From contig OZ250145.1 of assembly GCA_965237565.1 (NCBI GenBank), positions 571,529 through 635,528 of the forward strand: a DNA stretch of 64,000 bases, written 5' to 3'. The notes beneath the pieces were generated by a model. It was not told the origin of the DNA and searched no databases. It worked only from the letters and a program-made list of their open reading frames with translations. The position numbers were made by a program, and so were the translations under genes. Shown one piece after another: positions 5,960 to 26,827 of this stretch. Position 1 is the stretch's first letter; each line of letters opens with the position of its first letter. Source of the stretch: Bdellovibrionales bacterium (lineage in GTDB: Bacteria; Bdellovibrionota; Bdellovibrionia; Bdellovibrionales; UBA1609).

Positions 5960-8068
5960 ATGAGTAGAAAATGGGATATTAAAAAAGTACGAAATATTGG
6001 AATCTCTGCACACATTGATTCAGGGAAAACCACCTTGACGGAAAGGATTTTGTATTACACAGGCCGTATCCACGTGATTCACGACGTCCGGGGCAAGGAC
6101 GGAGTGGGTGCCAAAATGGATTCCATGGAATTGGAAAAAGAACGAGGAATTACGATTAAATCCGCGGCAACTAATGTGCAATGGGAAGATTGTGCGATCA
6201 ATATTATTGACACCCCTGGGCATGTGGATTTTACGATCGAAGTGGAAAGAGCTTTAAGAGTCTTGGATGGTGCGATCTTGGTGCTATGTGGAGTGGCCGG
6301 TGTGCAATCCCAATCCATTACAGTGGATCGGCAAATGCGTCGCTACCATGTTCCTCGCATCGCTTTCATTAACAAGCTAGATAGGGCAGGAGCCAATCCA
6401 TTTCGAGTGTCCGAAATGCTAAAAGAAAAATTGAATCACAACATAGTTTTGATGCAAATTCCAATTGGCCTAGAGTCTGCACACGAAGGCGTTGTGGATC
6501 TCATTCAAATGAAAGCGATTTATTTCGAAGGAGATGAAGGGGAAAATCCTGTGCTTAAGGATATTCCAAGCCAACTCATGAAACAGGCAAAAGAATATCG
6601 AATAAAAATGATTGAATCTTTGTCAGATTTTGATGATGGCTTGGCTGAAAAATTTCTAAACGAAGAAGATCCCTCTGAGGAATTAATCAAAAATGCCATT
6701 CGTAAAGCCACTTTGTCATTAGAGATCACCCCTGTTTTCATGGGCTCAGCCTTTAAAAACAAAGGGGTGCAAAGTGTTTTATCAGGGGTGGTGGATTATC
6801 TACCAGATCCCTCCCAAATAGAAAATAGAGCCCTCGATCAATCCAAGAAAGAAAAGGAAATAATCTTATCAACTGATCCCGAAAAACCTTTTGTGGGTCT
6901 GGCCTTTAAATTAGAGGATGGACGCTTTGGACAACTTACCTATATGAGACTTTACCAAGGAAAAGTGTGCAAAGGTGATTTTATTTATAATGTACGAACA
7001 GGACAAAAACTAAAAGTTCCTCGCATTGTATACATGCACTCAGATGAGATGGAAGATGTTGAGCAAGCAGAGGCAGGAGACATTGTCGCTTTTTTTGGAA
7101 TTGATTGTGCTTCAGGGGACACTTTTTGTTCGAAAGACATTCAATACACGATGACTTCTATGTTTGTGCCAGAACCGGTGATTTCTTTAGCTATCCAAGC
7201 CAAAGAACGCAATGCAACCAGCAATTTCAACAAAGCTTTGTTGAAATTTCATAAGGAAGACCCCACCTTCCAGGTGCATCGTGATAGAGAATCTGGTGAG
7301 ACGATCATTTCAGGGATGGGGGAATTACACTTAAATATTTATATCGAAAGAATGAAAAGAGAATTTAGTTGCGAGGTGCAAGCGGGACAGCCCCAAGTGG
7401 CTTATCGGGAAACAATTACTCGGGAAGTGGAATACGATTACACTCACAAGAAGCAAACCGGGGGAGCAGGACAATTTGCAAGGGTTCAGGGAACTCTTGG
7501 CCCTCTTCCAGAAGGTTCTGGCAAGAATTATGAATTCATCAGTAAAGTTAGGGGAGGCCGGATTCCAAAAGAATACATCCCAGCTGTTGACCGGGGTTTT
7601 CAAAAGCAAATGCAAAAAGGTCCTCTGATTGGTTTTCCCATCGTTGGTGTGAAAGCCATTTTATCCGACGGAGCTTTTCATGATGTAGATTCCAGTGAGT
7701 TGGCCTTTAAAATCTGTGCCATGTCGACATTTCGTGAATATTTCATTAAAGCAAAGCCAGTTATTTTGGAACCCATCATGAAGCTGGAAGTGGCGGCTCC
7801 AGAAGAATTCCAAGGCAATGTGATTGGGCAGATCAACCAAAGAAGAGGGATGATAAAAAATAGCCAATCAGAACAAAAATTTGTAACCATTGAAGCAGAG
7901 GTTCCCTTAGCTACCATGTTTGATTATTCCACAGAGCTGCGTTCAGCTACCCAAGGGAAAGGAGAGTTTACGATGGAGTTTGCCCGTTACTCTCAAGTGC
8001 CAGCCAGCGTGCAAGAAGAGCTGATCAAGATGTATGAAGAAAAACGAAAAAAGGAAAAAAGAGCATGA
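5960..8068 (+). CDS. fusA: elongation factor G (mitochondrial/spd-EFG1-like type)
   Basis: G domain motifs [22 protein letters not shown]. 702 aa. The switch region [26 protein letters not shown] resembles mitochondrial EF-G1 rather than E. coli FusA. Confidence 0.95.
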
Positions 8069-8625
8069 TTCTCTCTGATGAAGGGATTCGAGATCGAATC
8101 AAAAAAAATGAAATAAAGATTGATCCACTTAGCGAAGGCTCTATTCAGTCAGCTTCTGTGGATTTGAAATTGGGATTTGAGTTTATTATTATTAAACATT
8201 GGAATAGTGAAATTTTAAACTTTCGTTCTGAACCGAAATATCAATCTGTTCAAACAGATCAATTTTTATTACCCTCTCATTCTTTTGTTTTAGCCACTAC
8301 AATCGAAACCGTTCAGATTCCTCCTGATTTGACGGCCTTTGTGGAAGGTCGTAGCTCCATTGGTCGAATGGGGCTTTTTATTCAAAATGCGGGATTGGTG
8401 GATCCGGGCTATAAAGGCCAGCTCACTTTAGAACTTTATAATGCTAATTCTTTGCCTATTCGCCTCGATTCGGGTTGGAGAATCTGCCAAATCGTGTTCC
8501 ATAAAATGGATCAAAAGACCACAAACCCTTATAAAGGCAAATACCAAGGCCAAAAAGGAGTGACGGGAACCCGTATTTCTGAGGATAAGGAAAATAGTGT
8601 AAAACCAGATAAAAATCTGCTATAG
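8065..8625 (+). CDS. dcd: dCTP deaminase
   Basis: N-terminus MILSDEGI, then SVDLKLG and [37 protein letters not shown] overlap with the fusA stop. Confidence 0.9.
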
Positions 8626-8829
8626 TCCAAATCAGTTAATGAAGGCGTCTTTTGATCTAGAAAATTCTCTTGGCAGTTTGGAATTCGGCGATGATGACCC
8701 GGATTCGAATCCTTCCATTCCATTTTTTTCCCTTTACGAAAATTCTATGTGGCTGAGGTTTTTACTATTAAAAAATTTGTTGCAAAATCCTCAAAGACCT
8801 AATTTTTGTTTTGAATCAAAGGAGAATCG

Positions 8830-9864
8830 GTGAACCTACTGATTCTTTATTTTTTTCTGGCAGTAGTGGTGTCCTTTTTTTGTTCTTTGTTGGAAGCTGT
8901 GATGCTTTCCGTAAACTCTGTTTACATTCGTGCTTCCATCAAAAAGAAAAAACCTTATGGCCCTTTGCTCAAATCGCTAAAATCTCAGATGGATCGTCCT
9001 TTGTCAGCGATTTTGACGTTTAATACGATTGCCAACACGGTTGGGGCTACGGGAGTGGGGGCCCAAGTTCACGTTCTTTACGGAAGTGCGTATGTGGCGT
9101 TTGCCTCTGGGATCTTAACCCTCGTTATTTTAATTGTCTCAGAAATCATACCCAAAACACTGGGAGCTTCTCACTGGAGAATCTTAGCTCCGAGTGTGGT
9201 CTATGTTGTAAGGGGTTTGATTGTTGCCGCCTATCCTTTTGTTTTGCTTTCAGAAAAACTTTACAGTCTTTTGTCTCGCAAAAAAGTCGTCTCTGTCACT
9301 CGTGAAGATATGATTGTTACCGCTGAGATGGGTGCTAGTGAAGGGACGATTGCACAAAAAGAAAGTCGAATAATTAAGAACTTGCTCATGCTTGACACGT
9401 TAAAAGTCTCTGAAATCATGACCCCCAGAGCGGTGATTTTAGCTTTCGAGAAAAAAATGAAAATCAAAGAGGTCATGCATAAATACCAACCCATTCGATT
9501 TTCTCGTGTCCCTCTCTACGAAGGGAGTTTGGACCAAATAGAGGGCTTTATTCATCGTTATAAAATTTTGGAAGCTCACGCTCATGATCTTTTCGATATT
9601 CCCTTGGGAGATTACATGACACCCATTCACTCCGTTCCAGAGAAAATTTCTGTGGCCGCCGTTTTGGATCAGTTTATTAAAAGAAAAGAGCATGTGTTTA
9701 TAGTAGTGGATTCTTATGGTGGCTTGACGGGTCTTGTGACTTTAGAAGATGCTATCGAAACTCTTTTGGGTGTTGAAATCGTAGACGAGTTTGATCCCGT
9801 GGCAGACATGAGACAGTTCGCTTTGGATCAATGGGAACTGAAAAAAAGAACAATGGGCAAGTGA
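8830..9864 (+). CDS. CNNM/CorC-HlyC family membrane protein (DUF21 + CBS pair)
   Basis: N-terminal TM domain with LSAILTFNTIANTVGA and SEIIPKTLG, followed by a CBS-pair region (VSEIMTPRAVI ... VVDSYGGLTGLVTLEDAIETLLG). GTG start. Confidence 0.82.
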   Translation: MNLLILYFFLAVVVSFFCSLLEAVMLSVNSVYIRASIKKKKPYGPLLKSLKSQMDRPLSAILTFNTIANTVGATGVGAQVHVLYGSAYVAFASGILTLVILIVSEIIPKTLGASHWRILAPSVVYVVRGLIVAAYPFVLLSEKLYSLLSRKKVVSVTREDMIVTAEMGASEGTIAQKESRIIKNLLMLDTLKVSEIMTPRAVILAFEKKMKIKEVMHKYQPIRFSRVPLYEGSLDQIEGFIHRYKILEAHAHDLFDIPLGDYMTPIHSVPEKISVAAVLDQFIKRKEHVFIVVDSYGGLTGLVTLEDAIETLLGVEIVDEFDPVADMRQFALDQWELKKRTMGK

Positions 9865-16884: not shown

Positions 16885-17952
16885 TTAATGTGAAAATAGT
16901 AAGGAAGTGTTTGAATCTGATTTTTGAATCTCGTCATGATCGTTCTCATCTTCTTGATCGGCTCCTTTTTTGAGTAATAAAGCTATTTTTTTCCTCTTTC
17001 TAAAGGGCAAAACTAACTGCAAAGGAGTGTTGCCGTATTTATTCTTAGCATTCACATCGGCTCCTTTTTTGAGTAATAAAGCTATTTTTTTCCTCTTTCT
17101 AAAGGGCAAAACTAACTGCAAAGGAGTGTTGCCGTATTTATTCTTAGCATTCACATCGGCTCCCTTTTTTACTAATAGTGAGATTATTTCTTTTTTTTTA
17201 TTCCCCCATGTAGCCCAATGTAGAGCCGTCCACCTGTTTTTATCCCTAGACTTTATATTAGCACCATTTTCTATTAGTAATTTTGTCATTCCAATTTGAT
17301 TTGTAATAATTGCTCCAAATAAAGGAGTTTCGCTATGGTTATTTTTAGCATTTACATCAGCCCCTTTTTCTATTAGTAATTTTGCGATTTCAGTTCTCCC
17401 GAAGACAATCATATTATGTAGAGGAGTTTCACCATATTTATTTTTAGCATTTATATCAGCCCCTTCTTGTATTAACAATAACGACATTAATTTTTGGTTT
17501 GGCCACATTGTATCAACATGTAGAGGAGTGTTGCCGTTTTCGTCCATAGTTTTTACACTGGCCCCTTTTTTTATTAATAGTGCTGCTGTTTCTGAAAACA
17601 ACAATTGTAATGCTAAATGTAAAGGAGCTTGGCCCTTTTCGTTCCTAGCATTTACATTGACCCCTTTTTTTACCAACAATAAGGCTCTTTGTTCGTCAAA
17701 GTTTTCTAAGGCTCTAAAGAGAGCAATTGTCCTCATTTGAATATCTCTAGGTTTCACTTCTGAGTCTAATAAGGCGACGACCATCTTATATCTTTGCGAA
17801 GGACTATCACACTGAGGATATCCATTCATATCTTGTGTGATAAAATTTACAATTTCTGTTATTTTGCCATTTTTAGTAGGTCTGTTTAAAAAGTTGTCAT
17901 TACCCCATAGAGAATAAGAGAAAAGAAGAAGAATAAATGTAAATAATTTCAT
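16885..17952 (-). CDS. secreted ankyrin-repeat protein (about 7-8 ANK repeats)
   Basis: Signal peptide MKLFTFILLLFSYSLWG. Repeated G-TPLH..A......i..LLi.kGAdvNakn units. Confidence 0.88.
   Translation of the reverse strand: MKLFTFILLLFSYSLWGNDNFLNRPTKNGKITEIVNFITQDMNGYPQCDSPSQRYKMVVALLDSEVKPRDIQMRTIALFRALENFDEQRALLLVKKGVNVNARNEKGQAPLHLALQLLFSETAALLIKKGASVKTMDENGNTPLHVDTMWPNQKLMSLLLIQEGADINAKNKYGETPLHNMIVFGRTEIAKLLIEKGADVNAKNNHSETPLFGAIITNQIGMTKLLIENGANIKSRDKNRWTALHWATWGNKKKEIISLLVKKGADVNAKNKYGNTPLQLVLPFRKRKKIALLLKKGADVNAKNKYGNTPLQLVLPFRKRKKIALLLKKGADQEDENDHDEIQKSDSNTSLLFSH
16959..17156. repeat. perfect 99-bp tandem duplication (one 33-aa ANK unit x2) inside the ankyrin gene
   Basis: 16959-17057 and 17058-17156 read identically and encode KKGADVNAKNKYGNTPLQLVLPFRKRKKIALLL twice. 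Confidence 0.9.
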
Positions 17953-18679: not shown

Positions 18680-18854
18680 TTTCTATTCTCCAGCAAACAC
18701 CTTGCCCATTGCGTCAATCTCTCATAGTCACTATAATTTTCAATTAAAAATTTTGATAAGTAAGAATACTTAGAATCCCTAGGTTTTGGTATAAACGGTA
18801 ATGGATGACATATCATGAATATGATAAAAAAATTAGAGAGCTCTTTTTTTGTCT
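18680..18854 (+). repeat. 175-bp direct repeat, left copy (MCO upstream region plus first 40 nt of MCO)
   Basis: Reads identically to 24205-24379 on visual alignment. Confidence 0.9.
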
Positions 18855-20029
18855 CCCCTTGGTCCATTTAGAAAAATAGCCTGTCTAAAATATTTGAAGT
18901 TATTTCGTAATTCTTTTTTTGGAAAAACATTTGATAAATTAATTACACTATCTATATTTTCAAATTTAAGTAATGGGTATTCCTTTTGAAACTTAGAATT
19001 ATATTTCTGCAAACTCTCTGCCTTTGCATTAGCTAAAATGCAAATAACCTCTACCTTCTTTGTAATTTCTGGTTTCTTTGACCAATTTAGAAATTTGCAC
19101 ATTTTATTATCAACCCATTTTTTAACTTTTTCATCTGAATAGGTTTTCCAGCTTTTACATTCTATTAAAGTAATGGAAGTGTTTGTCTCAACATAAATAT
19201 CAATTTCTGCTTGATGAGTATAAGAACTTTCATCTCTCCATTTTAATATCTTATTATGTTTAACCGGGATAGTATTGTTTATATTAAGTTTCATATATAA
19301 AAAAAATACTAAAACTTCAAATATATAACCTTGAAGATTACCAATTCTGCTCTCTTTACTTACAATATTATCAAGCAAATCTTTCACTAAATTTTTCAGA
19401 TCTGCCATATCAAAGTTATTTTTTTTCTTAAGAAAGGCCAAATGAAGGAGCTTATTCAATCCAGATAATAAAGAACTTAGCTGAAACGAAGCCAAAGATA
19501 TTGTTACAAAACCTAAATGTCTAAGATTCATTAATATATCTCTCTGCATGTTTCTAAAAATAATAATCGGTAAAATTTTCTGAACACCTTGCTTATTCTT
19601 TTGACTTACAATAGTTTTATACTTTCTTACCAATGGCAAAGTATTATCTTTATTTAATTTTTTATGTATGAAAATTTCACAAACTAACCAACCATGCTCT
19701 CTTTGACTAGTTCGCAAAGGGCTTAAATAACAAGGAGCTATCATACTCCAAGGAATATGTCCAAATTGAGGAATTTTTTCTTTACTCCTTAAAATATTTT
19801 TTTCAAGACCAGTAGAGATAAAATTCATTTTAACAAAAAACTTTTTTATTTCTTTTAAAATTATATCTTCAAGAAATTCATAATTTTGACTATTTTTATC
19901 AGTAAAAGACTCTGCATTATACAAAATATATCTTACACTATTTTCAGTGTTTTCACGTTTTATTAACTTTATAGAAAGTAAGTTATCTAATGCCTCCGTA
20001 AATGTTTTCTGTTTAGAAATTTTTTTCAA
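18833..20029 (-). CDS. PD-(D/E)xK nuclease-fold protein; probably the 3' portion of a gene split at a G9 tract
   Basis: 398-aa ORF with a weak TTG start and no SD. Candidate catalytic core GYIFEVLV ... AEIDIYVE-x8-LIECKSW (E...D...ExK). The last 6 codons derive from the flanking repeat. Confidence 0.65.
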   Translation of the reverse strand: MKKISKQKTFTEALDNLLSIKLIKRENTENSVRYILYNAESFTDKNSQNYEFLEDIILKEIKKFFVKMNFISTGLEKNILRSKEKIPQFGHIPWSMIAPCYLSPLRTSQREHGWLVCEIFIHKKLNKDNTLPLVRKYKTIVSQKNKQGVQKILPIIIFRNMQRDILMNLRHLGFVTISLASFQLSSLLSGLNKLLHLAFLKKKNNFDMADLKNLVKDLLDNIVSKESRIGNLQGYIFEVLVFFLYMKLNINNTIPVKHNKILKWRDESSYTHQAEIDIYVETNTSITLIECKSWKTYSDEKVKKWVDNKMCKFLNWSKKPEITKKVEVICILANAKAESLQKYNSKFQKEYPLLKFENIDSVINLSNVFPKKELRNNFKYFRQAIFLNGPRGDKKRAL

Positions 20030-20049: not shown

Positions 20050-20370
20050 CTAAGTATTTTTCATCAACATCCCCCCCCCTCTATATCTCATTGCATTTAA
20101 AATATAACTTTCGGCAATCTTCTCTTTATTACAATATTTATGGAATTTGCCCTTTACTTTACTGAACTTACCAATATAGTAAAACTTTTTATTATTACTG
20201 AAGTTAATTTGCTCTACCTTCTGAACAGGATCCTTGGCCCTAGAAACAGCCCTTAAAGCTGATGTACGACTCATTTTAAATTCATCAATTAATTTTTTAC
20301 TGATTTCATTGGATAATAAACCCCCTCCACTCTCTCTTAAAATTGTAGCAATTTGGTCATTATGGCTCAT
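20050..20370 (-). CDS. small winged-helix-like protein; probably the 5' portion of the split nuclease gene
   Basis: 106-aa ORF. ATILRESGGGLLSNEISKKL...SRTSALRAVSRA resembles a wHTH. It ends 6 codons after a G9 run. Confidence 0.6.
   Translation of the reverse strand: MSHNDQIATILRESGGGLLSNEISKKLIDEFKMSRTSALRAVSRAKDPVQKVEQINFSNNKKFYYIGKFSKVKGKFHKYCNKEKIAESYILNAMRYRGGGMLMKNT
20071..20079. repeat. homopolymeric C9/G9 tract (candidate slipped-strand switch)
   Basis: Plus strand ccccccccc, coding strand GGG GGG GGG. The two flanking ORFs exchange reading frame exactly here. Confidence 0.9.
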
Positions 20371-20516: not shown

Positions 20517-22379
20517 CTAAAACTTATCTTTTATACTTTTCAACTTGTCTTCTATTTTTTCAAACAGCTTGGTTATAATTTCCTTAGTCGTTTCGTCTAA
20601 TTTGATTGAATCTCCACTTTGGCAAGCTTCTAAAAATTTTTTTGCGAGCAAAACTTTATCTATACTCTCCTTTTTCACATATTCCGAATTAGATTCAGAA
20701 TAAGTTTTGCTCGCATTTCTGGGCAGCACAAATTTTCTAAAATCAGATGACGAGAAGATGTCCTCAATACTCTCTTTCTTCTTATTATCAGAAATAGAAA
20801 GAATTAAATCCTTTGTTACTAACCAATTATCTTTAAGATTTTTCTTGCCGTCTTTTTCACCTTGATCATTGTCATAGAGATAAACAACTTTTGCGCCCCA
20901 ACCATGCAAAATTGTACCGATAATCGACATATTCCCAGCTCCACCGCCGAAAATAAAGTTCACATTGTTTTCATTATTAAGTAATTTTTTGAAGGCATTG
21001 AGATAATATACATCTGAAGGGCCTTCAACTACAACATTATTCACTTTATTCAATTCTGATATTCCCGCATTCAATTCAAGTCCGATTGCAGTCAGGATTG
21101 GAGTAAGTGTCTCTTTATCAGCTAAAGCGTGAACTTTATTTTCTATTGTTGTGCCTTTAATCTTGTCCTTATGTATAAGACGAATCCGGTTCAGTTTGTC
21201 GGCCTCTAAAAGATACGGAGAATGGGTGGAAAAAATTAACTGAGCTTTTTTTGCTGAATCTTCTAATTTTTCCAAAATATTTTTTTGTGCTTTTGCGTGT
21301 AAAAAAAGCCCAGGTTCGTCAATCAGAATTATATTCGATACATTCTCATTTGCTCGTGCAGAAATTTTGATATAAAAAGACAAATGCCATTGACGACCTT
21401 TGCTCCTCAATCGTAGTTCGTAGGGTTGATCATCTTCTTGTATCCAAACGTACAGATGTTCAGAATCCCAGTCGACACTCAAAATTGAATCATCCTGACT
21501 CCAAAATTTTTTATAATCCTTATTGAGCTTGATGTTTATATCGACTTTGTGTTTTTTTTTATCTCTGTCATCAGCACTTTTTATTATGTCAGGCTTTAAA
21601 TCGCTAATCACTGACAAATCTTTAATCCATTCGTTTTCCTCTAGTTCAGCAAGTAGTATTTTGTCAGGAAAAATATTCTCAAAGGACTTAAACAGAATAA
21701 ATTTTGGTATGCGTTTCTTTAAGGACTCAAGAAATTTTTCCTTGGTGGTAAAAAAATTTTCCAGATTATTTATCTTTAATTCTATTTCAGAAAATAATTT
21801 CAGAAAATTATTGTGTATCTTTTCATCAACAATACTTTGGATGTTTGGAGTTACAGTATTTTTGAACTCTATAAAAAGGTTCTTGGAATTAGCAAAATTA
21901 GAAAAATCAAAATCAAATAACTCTCCTCCCAACACTGTATTTTCTTCCCTGATCTTCTTTACTTCATTCCACTTGTCCTCGATAGATTTTTGAACTTTCT
22001 CTATCTTCTCGCTATCAAAAATTTCATTCTCTAGGGTATTTTCCCTGAAAGAGTATCGGTCTGGAAAAATTTTTATAACCTCAAGGTCAATGTTTTTAGT
22101 TACCTCTACCGGACTTTCTATTTCTTTCAGAATTTTTTTCGCCATGTCTTTTTTAAGAGTAAAGGTTACGGAAATTTCAGGTTTTTTATCAGGTGATTGA
22201 ATAGACTTTGCTTCTTCTCTTATATTTTTTTCAGTATCAAAATCCTCCAATGCTTCAAGAATTGAAGTTTTACCTGATTCATTTTTACCAGCGAAAATAG
22301 AAATTGTGTCATTAAGATAACAGTCACCGCTATCAATGATTGATTTATAGTTTTTGATTTTGAATTTCTTTAAATTCAT
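20517..22379 (-). CDS. OLD-family nuclease (ABC-type ATPase + C-terminal Toprim)
   Basis: Walker A FAGKNESGKTS, Walker B ILIDEPGLFLH, H-loop FSTHSP. Toprim motifs VVVEGPSD and LYDNDQGEKDG. I start it at ATG 22379 (MNLKKFKIKNYKSI; AAGGA about 9 nt upstream), 4 nt after the HNH stop. Confidence 0.85.
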   Translation of the reverse strand: MNLKKFKIKNYKSIIDSGDCYLNDTISIFAGKNESGKTSILEALEDFDTEKNIREEAKSIQSPDKKPEISVTFTLKKDMAKKILKEIESPVEVTKNIDLEVIKIFPDRYSFRENTLENEIFDSEKIEKVQKSIEDKWNEVKKIREENTVLGGELFDFDFSNFANSKNLFIEFKNTVTPNIQSIVDEKIHNNFLKLFSEIELKINNLENFFTTKEKFLESLKKRIPKFILFKSFENIFPDKILLAELEENEWIKDLSVISDLKPDIIKSADDRDKKKHKVDINIKLNKDYKKFWSQDDSILSVDWDSEHLYVWIQEDDQPYELRLRSKGRQWHLSFYIKISARANENVSNIILIDEPGLFLHAKAQKNILEKLEDSAKKAQLIFSTHSPYLLEADKLNRIRLIHKDKIKGTTIENKVHALADKETLTPILTAIGLELNAGISELNKVNNVVVEGPSDVYYLNAFKKLLNNENNVNFIFGGGAGNMSIIGTILHGWGAKVVYLYDNDQGEKDGKKNLKDNWLVTKDLILSISDNKKKESIEDIFSSSDFRKFVLPRNASKTYSESNSEYVKKESIDKVLLAKKFLEACQSGDSIKLDETTKEIITKLFEKIEDKLKSIKDKF

Positions 22380-22383
22380 AAAA

Positions 22384-22986
22384 TTATTCCTTCCACTCAA
22401 TATGCCCATTTATATCGTGGTCTTCATAAGTCTGCAAGATATCGGTGCAAAAATCTTGAAGTGTTTGGTTTTTCTTTTTCTTCGCAAGATTGTAAAGGCG
22501 AATAAACATTTTCTTTCCAGTTTCAGTTTGCTTTAGATTTTTCTTTAAAAAATTGTGTTGTGCACAAAGTGTTTGTCCGTTATATATTGTTGCCTTCCCG
22601 CCAAGATCTTTTGCCTTAATATGATCAACATGAAGCTCTATACCGTTTTTTTTGTCTAGTCCGCAAATCACGCATTTATAACCGTCGCGCTCCAAAATCT
22701 TTGTTTTTTGTGTGGTAGAAAAATTCTCCAGATTTCTCTGCTTCACTTTGTTAGGGTTATAGAGATAAACGCCTTTTTTTATCTTTATCAAACACCCCTC
22801 TTGATGAAGACGGCGAATACCTCTATCAGGGTCTCTAAAAACTTTTCTTGTTCGTTTTTTCCATTCCTTCATTGCCCAATCTACAATTGTTGGGTGAGAA
22901 ATATTCCGGTTGGGATTTTTTTTGAAAAATTCCATGAGTAAATCGAGCTGTGTCTGTGATCTTTTGTTATTTTTTTTCTTTGCCAT
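22384..22986 (-). CDS. HNH endonuclease with N-terminal wHTH-like region (candidate restriction subunit)
   Basis: RDGYKCVICG...ELHVDHIKAKDLGG...NGQTLCAQHN shows the HNH motif with CxxC/CxxH zinc ligands. 4-nt gaps to both neighbours. Confidence 0.85.
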   Translation of the reverse strand: MAKKKNNKRSQTQLDLLMEFFKKNPNRNISHPTIVDWAMKEWKKRTRKVFRDPDRGIRRLHQEGCLIKIKKGVYLYNPNKVKQRNLENFSTTQKTKILERDGYKCVICGLDKKNGIELHVDHIKAKDLGGKATIYNGQTLCAQHNFLKKNLKQTETGKKMFIRLYNLAKKKKNQTLQDFCTDILQTYEDHDINGHIEWKE

Positions 22987-22990
22987 ATAT

Positions 22991-23827
22991 TTAGAATAAA
23001 CTAGCTTGCTCGATTTCTGCTTCTTGTTGTAAACGATTAATGGCTATATCGCAATAGCCCTTATCAATATCAACTCCAATTCCCTTTCGTTTGTGCAAGC
23101 TTGCGGCAATAAGTGTTGAACCACTTCCGAGAAACGGATCAAGGACTGTATCACCAACAAAGCTAAATAGTTTTATGCACCTTCTTGGAAGCTCAATCGG
23201 AAAAGCAGCAGGATGTCCACCCGCTCCCTTCTTGCTTTGGCCATTGAATGTCCATACTCCATTCGTCCAATCCATAAATTCTTGTTTTGTTATGTCGTTT
23301 TTCTTTCGTCCATTATTCTTTTTCCAGCTTTTCTTATACAAAACTAAAATTACTTCAACAGGAGCGATTACATAAGGAGCAGAGGCGGACATCCAAGAAC
23401 CCCAAGCAGTCCTACGCGAAATATTACCCTCATTCCAAATAATTGTTGAGTGATAATTCCAACCAACCTTTCGGGCAATATTTGTAATGTCAGCGCAGAC
23501 TGCTTGTTGGCCACCCTTATTTTTATCAAGAGGAATATTCAAACAAAATCGTCCATCAGCTCTTGCAAGGTCATAACATTTTTTGAGCCATTTTTTGGTA
23601 AACTCCAAATACCCGCCATAGGATAAATCGTCCTTGTGAGAATTGTAGTGAACATCTACATTGTAGGGTGGTGATGTAATAATGAGATCAACGGACGATT
23701 TTGGAATGTCAGCTATTTTCAAAATGTTGTCTTTGTAGATGAAAATATCGTCGTGCTTGAAGTAATAAGACGACTTCTGTGCTTGAGTGGTATCTCGTGT
23801 ATTTTTTTGTGTTATAATTTCTTGCAT
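22991..23827 (-). CDS. beta-class DNA amino-methyltransferase (N4-cytosine or N6-adenine)
   Basis: Motif IV DLIITSPPYNV lies N-terminal to motif I VLDPFLGSGSTLIAA. This is the beta permutation, and SPPY favours m4C. Confidence 0.9.
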   Translation of the reverse strand: MQEIITQKNTRDTTQAQKSSYYFKHDDIFIYKDNILKIADIPKSSVDLIITSPPYNVDVHYNSHKDDLSYGGYLEFTKKWLKKCYDLARADGRFCLNIPLDKNKGGQQAVCADITNIARKVGWNYHSTIIWNEGNISRRTAWGSWMSASAPYVIAPVEVILVLYKKSWKKNNGRKKNDITKQEFMDWTNGVWTFNGQSKKGAGGHPAAFPIELPRRCIKLFSFVGDTVLDPFLGSGSTLIAASLHKRKGIGVDIDKGYCDIAINRLQQEAEIEQASLF

Positions 23828-23830
23828 AAA

Positions 23831-23980
23831 TCAATAAAGTAAATCATCAACTTTCACATCAAGCGTGTTGGCAATTTTGGTTAATGTTTCTATTGGGTTT
23901 TTTATTTACCCTCAGCTCTATTTTACCACAGTATTCAAAGACAATTCAAAAAGACGAACAATTTCTTGTTGTTTATTCAC
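23831..23980 (-). pseudogene. XRE/controller-like HTH gene with three in-frame stops
   Basis: Minus strand reads V-NKQQEIVRLFELSLNTVVK-TAG-S-TGA-G-TAA-IKNPIETLTKIANTLDVKVDDLLY-TGA, ending 3 nt before the methyltransferase ATG. Helix-1 appears to be missing. Confidence 0.6.
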
Positions 23981-23981
23981 C

Positions 23982-24041
23982 GCATGCTATCATAATGTAT
24001 AATCTATCTATATTTATCTTTCAACTATAATGATAGCATGC
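23982..24041. promoter_or_regulatory. 12-bp perfect inverted repeat with AT-rich 36-nt spacer (candidate operator/promoter of the cassette operon)
   Basis: gcatgctatcat (23982-23993) and atgatagcatgc (24030-24041). The spacer contains two tataat hexamers. It lies directly upstream of the HTH pseudogene. Confidence 0.4.
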
Positions 24042-24204: not shown

Positions 24205-24379
24205 TTTCTATTCTCCAGCAAACACCTTGCCCATTGCGTCAATCTCTCATAGTCACTATAATTTTCAATTAAAAATTTTGATAAGTAAGAATACTTAGAA
24301 TCCCTAGGTTTTGGTATAAACGGTAATGGATGACATATCATGAATATGATAAAAAAATTAGAGAGCTCTTTTTTTGTCT
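24205..24379 (+). repeat. 175-bp direct repeat, right copy
   Basis: Reads identically to 18680-18854. It includes the authentic MCO start at 24340. Confidence 0.9.
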
Positions 24380-26473: not shown

Positions 26474-26827
26474 TGGTGGAGGCGACGAGAGTCGAACTCG
26501 TGTCCGTATATCCTTCACATTCAGGCAAGCTACATGCTTAGTTGGTATTCATACACCAGCTTCTTCCTGACCAACAAAAAAAAGCCGGGTTTTTACCAGT
26601 AGATTTAAATTTTCCACCCTAGTAAAACAGTGAAAAATCGAGACGACTGAATCGACGCTTTCCACATTCCATCGTCAAAAATGCAGTCAACGGCTACCTA
26701 TTTAATTAGGCAACAAATGCAACTTGAGAGTTGCCAACTATTTAGTAAGCACATTTTTAAAGAGGTCCTCATGCGCCTCTGCATGCTCCTGAAGCTTCAT
26801 GACCTACGTCGAAGCCATAACGCCCCC
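26474..26827 (-). ncRNA. ssrA: tmRNA (ssrA)
   Basis: The reverse complement starts gggggcgttatggcttcgacgtagg and ends cgagttcgactctcgtcgcctccacca. Candidate tag ORF ggc aac tct caa gtt gca ttt gtt gcc taa. Confidence 0.9.

Follow-up and report, generated by a model that had tools for sequence, protein, structure and literature searches.

An OLD-family nuclease gene as the terminal gene of a type II restriction-modification operon in a Bdellovibrionales bacterium

Background

What does an OLD-family nuclease do at the end of a restriction-modification (RM) operon? This question is raised by a locus on contig OZ250145.1 of a Bdellovibrionales bacterium (GenBank assembly GCA_965237565.1), of which a window of 64,000 nucleotides (positions 571,529 to 635,528 of the forward strand) was analysed; all coordinates below refer to this window. 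At 20517-23827, three closely spaced minus-strand genes encode a beta-class DNA methyltransferase (M), a small winged-helix endonuclease of the HNH type and, in the last position, a protein that combines an ABC-type ATPase with a Toprim domain, i.e. a member of the OLD family. OLD nucleases are widespread; for the class 1 forms, which consist of a single gene, both the trigger and the reason for retention are open questions. Class 1 genes have been defined as isolated ones which do not lie beside other defence genes (PMC10568477, PMC6755086), and an RM-linked class is not described in the published OLD classifications consulted (classes 1-5).

The three proteins could form a single machine, the OLD protein could be a dedicated accessory of restriction, it could act on its own and be carried along by the RM genes, or the genes could be neighbours by chance. 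Having compared each module with its relatives in other genomes, we favour with moderate confidence the third of these explanations, in which the locus is a two-layer defence operon composed of an RM cassette and a partner-independent OLD rider.

Organisation of the operon

The genes for M (22991-23827, minus strand, 278 aa), the winged-helix-HNH protein (22384-22986, minus strand, 200 aa) and the OLD protein (20517-22379, minus strand, 620 aa) are separated by 4 nt at each junction (22987-22990 between M and HNH, 22380-22383 between HNH and OLD). The longest open reading frame (ORF) listed for the OLD gene extends from 20517 to 22409 and would encode 630 aa; a start at the second ATG, at position 22379, is backed by the family N-terminus MKLKKFRIKNYKSI in an alignment of 13 homologs as well as by a Shine-Dalgarno-like AAGGA ahead of this ATG. 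Coordinates and conserved start are those of the preliminary description of this DNA, which was made from the letters alone and had reported three tightly spaced minus-strand genes with 4-nt spacers and an OLD protein of 620 aa.

All three ORFs are full-length and their catalytic residues are invariant. In a scan for promoters and terminators, no terminator-like site was found between the three genes or immediately 3' of them, the sole such site of the scanned region being located at 19734-19749, within a 398-aa ORF further downstream; promoter-like matches were not enriched in the AT-rich DNA of the island in which the operon resides. The 4-nt spacers and the lack of a terminator-like site suggest that OLD is co-expressed and co-mobile with the RM genes, in which case it would be translated off the RM transcript.

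The methyltransferase matches the Pfam family N6_N4_Mtase (PF01555, 5e-45) and the PADLOC model MTase_II (6e-94). It contains both motifs by which the methyltransferases of type II systems are recognised, the S-adenosylmethionine-binding FxGxG and the catalytic S/D/N-PP-Y/F, and the order of these motifs, with motif IV (SPPY) preceding motif I (FLGSGST), is that of the beta class. Its relatives in the PDB include 2zie, M.RsrI and M.PvuII. The base methylated is probably N4-cytosine, N6-adenine being possible as well.

The second protein matches the HNH family PF01844 (1e-6). In its AlphaFold2 (AF2) model (pLDDT 82), residues 13-75 form a winged helix at the N-terminus, and the HNH core comes after it. 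Foldseek comparison of this model with the PDB gave domain-level matches only, namely to winged helices and to the HNH domains of McrA/Gme, and no full-length match was found among solved structures or named restriction enzymes. Several type II RM systems are known to use HNH endonucleases, e.g. KpnI, Hpy99I and PacI, and the winged-helix-HNH protein is presumed to be the restriction enzyme of the module.

The third protein shows, at its N-terminus, an ABC ATPase and, at its C-terminus, a Toprim domain with the glutamate and the DxD motif that define OLD proteins. It matches AAA_15 (6e-20), AAA_21 (4e-14) and the PADLOC model Old (5e-23, residues 341-534), and reaches 22.0 bits with the Pfam model OLD-like_TOPRIM, just short of the gathering cut-off of 23.2. 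In the 13 aligned homologs, the Walker A residues K37/T38, the Walker B residues D354/E355 and H386 of the H-loop are invariant, as are the Toprim residues E452/D456 and D503/D505 (DxD); the invariant ATPase motifs read GKNESGKT, ILIDEPG, SKGRQ and STHSP. The ABC ATPase carries a helical insert. The nearest solved relative of the protein is the class 1 OLD of Thermus scotoductus, TsOLD (6p74, E 3e-7), of which the ABC signature region alone aligns. The domains named earlier for all three proteins are thereby confirmed.

A widespread type II cassette with a variable 3' slot

Homologs of the HNH protein are numerous (3374), the best of them being 64-80% identical to the protein of the window. 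For the survey of their neighbourhoods 79 metagenome loci were used; 8 of the 11 loci without an upstream M gene are cut by the contig end, leaving 71 informative ones. In 68 of these 71, the gene immediately upstream of HNH encodes a homologous N6_N4 methyltransferase, so that the endonuclease is conserved as a pair with its methyltransferase, and the M proteins paired with the same HNH elsewhere are 74-81% identical to M of the window. In 16 related loci an intact homologous controller gene (C) of the XRE type precedes M. In addition, bare two-gene inserts of M and HNH were found inside a nuo operon (L060; loci are given by our locus numbers) and beside purA in an alphaproteobacterium (L061-63), which indicates that the pair constitutes a self-contained RM cassette. 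M-HNH is a widespread type II RM cassette.

This cassette is commonly followed by further genes. In 50 out of 66 loci, a co-directional gene lies within 150 nt on the 3' side of HNH. Some 40 unrelated clusters are represented, and among the products are an SDH-type protease, a proteasome-like protein, RmuC, an ATPase with AAA_15 only and many unknowns. Genes of the OLD family occupy this slot in 3 of these loci, and about 95% of the M-HNH loci (in any case >90%) have no OLD. Most of the genes in the slot (L065-L144) are unannotated, and they often overlap the HNH gene or lie a few nucleotides away from it. The cassette was detected on just two viral contigs and no relatives of OLD were found on viral contigs, which argues that the unit is not typically phage-borne.

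Recurrence of the three-gene arrangement

The preliminary description had proposed that an RM module is joined here to an OLD nuclease, and the same arrangement, C-M-HNH-OLD with an OLD protein of the window type, was indeed found in L069, L077 and L145-147. In L069, M is 76%, HNH 68% and OLD 71% identical to the copies of the window; among the recurrent trios overall the values are 74-76% for M, 68% for HNH and 69-71% for OLD, and the OLD protein of L145-147 (P0027) was found on 23 contigs. The junctions are shared as well and consist of a stop codon, 4 nt and an ATG (4-5 nt in the survey). As order and spacing repeat on other contigs, the trio exceeds what chance would produce, and it is not limited to this genome.

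A second combination is informative with regard to how the third gene was obtained. In L057-59/L065, M (81% identical) and HNH (77%) are followed by an OLD protein that is just 28.6% identical to that of the window and nevertheless keeps the full ABC and Toprim layout with EGxSD/DDD motifs. The combination of closely related M-HNH genes with a divergent OLD points to independent acquisition, i.e. the cassette captured two different OLDs.

The conserved order and junctions of the recurrent trios, together with the 4-nt spacers, are also what would be expected of an obligate three-component machine, in which methylation would direct both nucleases or the OLD ATPase would drive or license the HNH protein in the manner of PtuA-PtuB. 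Septu does pair an ABC ATPase with an HNH protein, and HNH nucleases are frequent beside the OLD clade. Nonetheless we regard such a machine as very unlikely. Many loci carry just one of the two modules, the partners of OLD include enzymes which are not of the HNH type (NgoPII, Mrr, MutH-like and type I, see below), and scores with the models of comparable ATPases are far too low (PtuA 44 of 500 bits, MAD3 29 of 420 bits), the HNH protein of the window lacking a PtuB match. The earlier proposal of a three-component system is thus not upheld in the sense of an obligate one: OLD proteins of about 70% identity stand behind at least eight other RM types or alone.

Partners of the OLD clade

More than 1400 homologs of the OLD protein were found, and the best 120 are all 64-73% identical to it and about 608 aa long. 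The hosts of these 120 comprise Patescibacteria (candidate phyla radiation, CPR), Elusimicrobia, Spirochaetia, Proteobacteria and Nanoarchaeota (DPANN). Since close homologs span such distant phyla, intense horizontal transfer of the gene is suggested.

Searches with tblastn for the M and HNH of the window near OLD homologs returned almost nothing, and a trio unique to this genome was first suggested by this result. It was dropped once domain annotation of the neighbouring genes had shown that other RM modules occur in their place. In the following, OLD homologs are 58-73% identical to the window protein unless marked as distant, and the neighbours are co-directional and abutting. In detail, OLD was found together with an M.EcoRI-like methyltransferase and a GmrSD_N-HNH protein (L006, L008, L009, L017), with C-R.NgoPII-M.C5 (L012, and a more distant homolog in L026), with a D12 methyltransferase and an unknown protein (L016), with PD-Lambda-5_A, a D12 methyltransferase and DUF5677 (L015), with Mrr (L013), with C, M and a MutH-like protein (L157/158) and with C, M, an unknown protein and a D12 methyltransferase (L160/161). 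Distant OLDs (40-43% identical) lie within type I operons of the order hsdM-OLD-hsdS-hsdR (L019, L025). In other loci, OLD is preceded by only an HTH (helix-turn-helix), HNH or LexA-like gene (L003, L005, L007, L149, L156) or is solitary (L011, L148, L151/152).

Altogether, close OLD homologs (at least 58% identical) provided 23 informative loci, of which 14 are coupled to RM genes, in at least 8 architectures; about 40% of the close homologs lack a neighbouring RM gene. As a control, outgroup OLDs of 23-30% identity were inspected, and none of their five loci has an RM neighbour. In a neighbour-joining tree of the OLD proteins the partner types are interleaved and form no partner-specific clades; the OLD of the window is not even the sister of that of L069, although their partner types are identical. 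RM modules and OLD are accordingly associated in a many-to-many fashion, and either is separable from the other.

A coupling to RM of this strength and clade-specificity can be explained in a second way, namely by a generic functional coupling in which the OLD clade would serve restriction in general as its dedicated accessory. Two versions have to be considered. In the first, the DNA ends left by any restriction enzyme would load or activate OLD, which as an ATP-dependent exonuclease would then destroy the fragments ('cut and chew'). Fragments generated by restriction are degraded by RecBCD in E. coli. P2 Old itself is reported to have 5'-3' exonuclease activity and a link to RecBCD (10.1101/2024.01.29.577857, PMC10568477). 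In the second, OLD would be a guard that fires when anti-restriction proteins block restriction, as PrrC does for EcoprrI and PARIS in response to Ocr; both are reported to be triggered by anti-restriction factors (10.1101/2024.01.29.577857, PMC10568477). In either version methylation would shield self DNA indirectly. Besides the association of 14 of 23 loci with RM operons of at least 8 unrelated types and its absence from the outgroup, this explanation is favoured by the position of the distant OLDs of L019 and L025 between hsdM and hsdS, which is like that of prrC, by the independent recruitment of two very different OLDs by one M-HNH cassette type, and by the match of the N-terminal ATPase to the PADLOC model AriA (8e-22). 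It has to account for the close homologs without a neighbouring RM gene and for the M-HNH cassettes, >90% of all, that lack any OLD; moreover, DNA-mimic anti-restriction proteins chiefly target type I systems, the partners found here being mostly of type II. Both versions taken jointly, we consider a generic coupling possible but rather doubtful.

Large serine recombinases (500-555 aa) are encoded beside many of the RM-OLD cassettes of CPR bacteria (L003, L005, L012, L016, L019, L157/L158), which suggests that the cassettes ride small serine-recombinase elements in these genomes. In one of these loci (L003, positions 6441-9824, Patescibacteria), an HTH gene and a gene for a 436-aa protein resembling EryCIII and UDP-glycosyltransferases precede OLD in place of the RM pair and may represent a DNA-glycosylating modification module.

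A proposed two-layer defence operon

In the two-layer operon that we favour, the first layer would be the type II RM cassette, originally controlled by C, whose methyltransferase would mark host DNA and whose winged-helix-HNH enzyme would cut incoming DNA lacking the mark. The second layer would be the OLD protein, an autonomous single-protein ATPase-nuclease housed in the cassette's variable 3' cargo slot. It would most likely be a Toprim nuclease gated by ATP, set off by a cue from infection and backing up restriction, and its action would be independent of which restriction enzyme precedes it. In relatives with an intact C gene, a position behind the restriction gene within a C-controlled transcript would also delay the production of a potentially toxic nuclease upon entry into a new host. 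A synergy between the two layers is conceivable.

Several observations weigh against this explanation. The RM link of the clade is far stronger than mere proximity in defence islands would produce, and OLD is mostly an abutting last gene without an obvious promoter, which hints at a function beyond hitch-hiking. HNH nucleases are over-represented beside OLD (wH-HNH, GmrSD-HNH and a 203-aa HNH protein in L005), so that an interaction of the ATPase with the HNH protein is conceivable. The AF2 model of OLD, built from 13 sequences, has a pLDDT of 57 and is unusable for a fold search; autonomy of the protein thus has no structural backing. As the C gene is dead in the window, expression of the whole operon is uncertain, and activity of both the RM module and the OLD module is a prediction.

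The island and its decayed genes

The operon lies in an island that is bordered by perfect direct repeats of 175 bp, at 18680-18854 and 24205-24379, which are 100% identical and spaced 5,525 bp apart. The GC content of the island is 27-33%, compared with about 38-42% in its flanks, and no integrase or transposase gene is present inside. Besides M, HNH and OLD, it contains the decayed C gene and a frameshifted gene for a NERD-like nuclease. A multicopper-oxidase ORF (start 24340) has its promoter region and its first 40 nt within the right repeat, which places the insertion at the 5' end of the oxidase gene; the arrangement fits an entry of the island at this site with a target duplication of 175 bp.

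Such 'insertion with long target duplication' has been described for RM systems (PMC2853133). The island corresponds to this type in that restriction and modification genes lie inside, its 5,525 bp are below 20 kb and the duplication of 175 bp exceeds 30 bp; it also shares with the described cases the absence of integrase and transposase and the low GC content. It differs in its larger cargo, i.e. OLD and the nuclease pseudogene.

Directly upstream of M, a pseudogene of an XRE-type HTH protein is found (23831-23980, minus strand) that has lost its N-terminus and contains three in-frame stops. Its frame translation, ...NKQQEIVRLFELSLNTVVK*S*G*IKNPIETLTKIANTLDVKVDDLLY*, can be aligned to the C proteins of L057/L058, which are intact and 64 aa long. 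Two elements stand out in the adjacent putative promoter/operator remnant (23982-24041, minus strand), an inverted repeat of 12 nt, GCATGCTATCAT...ATGATAGCATGC, and a motif, TTGTTTGG...TATCATTATAGT, that is common to the regions upstream of the C genes of related cassettes (compared were L145, L069, L072, L079, L116, L126 and L080); a remnant of the motif TTGTTTGC...TATCATTGTAGT likewise corresponds to one conserved ahead of intact C genes in related cassettes. The conserved upstream motif may be a promoter or a C-box.

Downstream of OLD, two ORFs are adjacent parts of one protein family in different frames and are therefore interpreted as a single frameshifted gene of about 490 codons. The N-terminal fragment (20050-20370, minus strand, 106 aa) is wHTH-like (winged helix-turn-helix) and 44% identical to residues 4-105 of the protein P0242 (E 1e-24). 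The C-terminal fragment (18833-20029, minus strand, 398 aa) represents a NERD-like PD-(D/E)xK body (DIYVE...IECK), its last 7 codons lying within the left direct repeat; it shows weak matches to NERD/DUF234 and aligns with proteins of about 490-510 aa over their residues 120-479. A word-based homolog search with the 398-aa ORF found nothing. An exhaustive HMMER search yielded about 180 remote relatives, none of which belongs to a named family, and one homolog, P0251, clears the NERD gathering score (25.7 versus 22.1 bits). This wHTH and NERD-like gene may be an as yet uncharacterised gene for type IV restriction or for defence.

Two pseudogenes in a foreign low-GC insert raise the possibility that the locus is a decaying remnant, perhaps non-functional, or a chance pile-up of the kind seen in defence islands. 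We regard this as quite improbable. The decay concerns C and the NERD-like gene, M, HNH and OLD being full-length with invariant catalytic residues; trios with identical junctions exist on many contigs, and RM adjacency is seen in 14 of 23 loci of the OLD clade as opposed to 0 of 5 in the outgroup. The preliminary description had named two findings that would undo its view of a co-functional trio. The first, a trio confined to this genome, did not materialise; the second, modules that work apart, is supported by comparative genomics in so far as each module occurs without the other, which predicts separate function.

Outside the island, a tmRNA gene (26474-26827, minus strand) ends 8 nt from the stop codon of the multicopper-oxidase gene. 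Genes for tmRNA are classic sites of island integration. An ankyrin-repeat gene (16885-17952, minus strand) with internal tandem-like repeats of 99 nt lies in a stretch of 29% GC just outside the island. The whole region from 16 to 26.5 kb, comprising the ankyrin-repeat gene, the island and the oxidase gene, may be a larger acquired region.

Significance

The recurrent habit of one conserved OLD clade to form the last gene of unrelated RM operons, among CPR bacteria, archaea of the DPANN group and further lineages, is apparently undescribed. Tentatively, one could go further and regard the clade as a distinct, as yet unnamed OLD class that serves as a universal 'plug-in' for any RM system of type I, II or IV and is triggered by restriction ends or by the inhibition of restriction, although we would rate this as unlikely rather than likely. 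If true, the plug-in would turn an RM cassette into an integrated immune module of two stages, one that spreads among phyla of both bacteria and archaea. In any case, an RM-linked OLD provides a testable handle on the question whether such a nuclease responds to what restriction produces or to the failure of restriction, and the variable 3' cargo slot of RM cassettes could be mined for new defence genes.

Comparison with known systems

With class 1 OLDs (P2 Old, TsOLD, V. cholerae OLD, E. coli YbjD) the protein shares the single polypeptide with ABC ATPase and Toprim as well as the absence of a helicase, a retron and a split partner, and by gene content it is class-1-like. Membership in class 1 was rejected on the stand-alone criterion: class 1 genes are isolated, whereas members of this clade usually end an RM operon without an obvious promoter of their own, as the OLD gene does here and as 14 of 23 relatives do by their coupling to RM.

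The other named OLD classes were considered as well, and the partners that characterise them are missing, as had been noted before. For Gabija (class 2), whose GajA is also an OLD with an AAA_15-type ATPase, no ORF for the GajB helicase exists in 17-28 kb of the window, where ORF list and domain scan revealed neither a UvrD-like helicase nor a separate Toprim gene, and GajA models score below the Old model. Retron-associated OLD (class 3) was discarded because no reverse-transcriptase domain was detected among the island ORFs; the Rfam search of 16-27 kb returned the tmRNA only and no msr/msd-type RNA. PARIS (AriA/AriB, class 4) shares the logic of ABC ATPase and Toprim and, conceptually, a tie to restriction by way of its anti-restriction triggers. 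It has a separate AriB (DUF4435-type) or a fused one, the protein described here being a single gene with a Toprim of the OLD-like_TOPRIM family. In spite of the AriA match, the best model for the whole protein is Old, AriA chains in the PDB were matched at just E 0.007, and AriAB is not among the 25 matches listed.

Septu shares an AAA_15-type ATPase with an HNH partner, and a resemblance to it had been suspected earlier. The order is different here, HNH preceding the ATPase, the ATPase has its own Toprim and the HNH protein belongs with the methylase; the score with the NCBIfam model PtuA is 44 bits against a cut-off of 500, and the HNH protein of the window has no PtuB match at E<0.01, so that the resemblance does not hold. 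MADS was rejected likewise (MAD3 model NF047739, 28.9 bits against a cut-off of 420; no other mad genes present).

For the RM part, the closest known arrangement is that of C-controlled type II systems with HNH enzymes, which have in common the tight pair of a beta-class methyltransferase and a small HNH protein and, in the relatives, the upstream XRE-type controller. The cassette order is C-M-R with all genes co-directional, the C gene of the window being the pseudogene described above.

Finally, the position of OLD recalls the 'guilt by embedding' genes of Payne et al. 2024 (10.1101/2024.01.29.577857), among which HEC-04 is an ABC-ATPase-Toprim and whose hosts cover Hma, BREX, DISARM and type I RM, and likewise PrrC of EcoprrI; in all of these a methylation-based system has an ABC-ATPase nuclease embedded in it or attached to it. 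The RNase of PrrC is of the HEPN type, unlike the Toprim found here, and it is the distant OLDs between hsdM and hsdS that resemble prrC in position. With the 3' cargo slot, 'guilt by embedding' would reach beyond large systems and take in type II RM, the difference being that small operons of type II (and of type IV) are here the usual hosts and that the rider is one highly conserved OLD clade.

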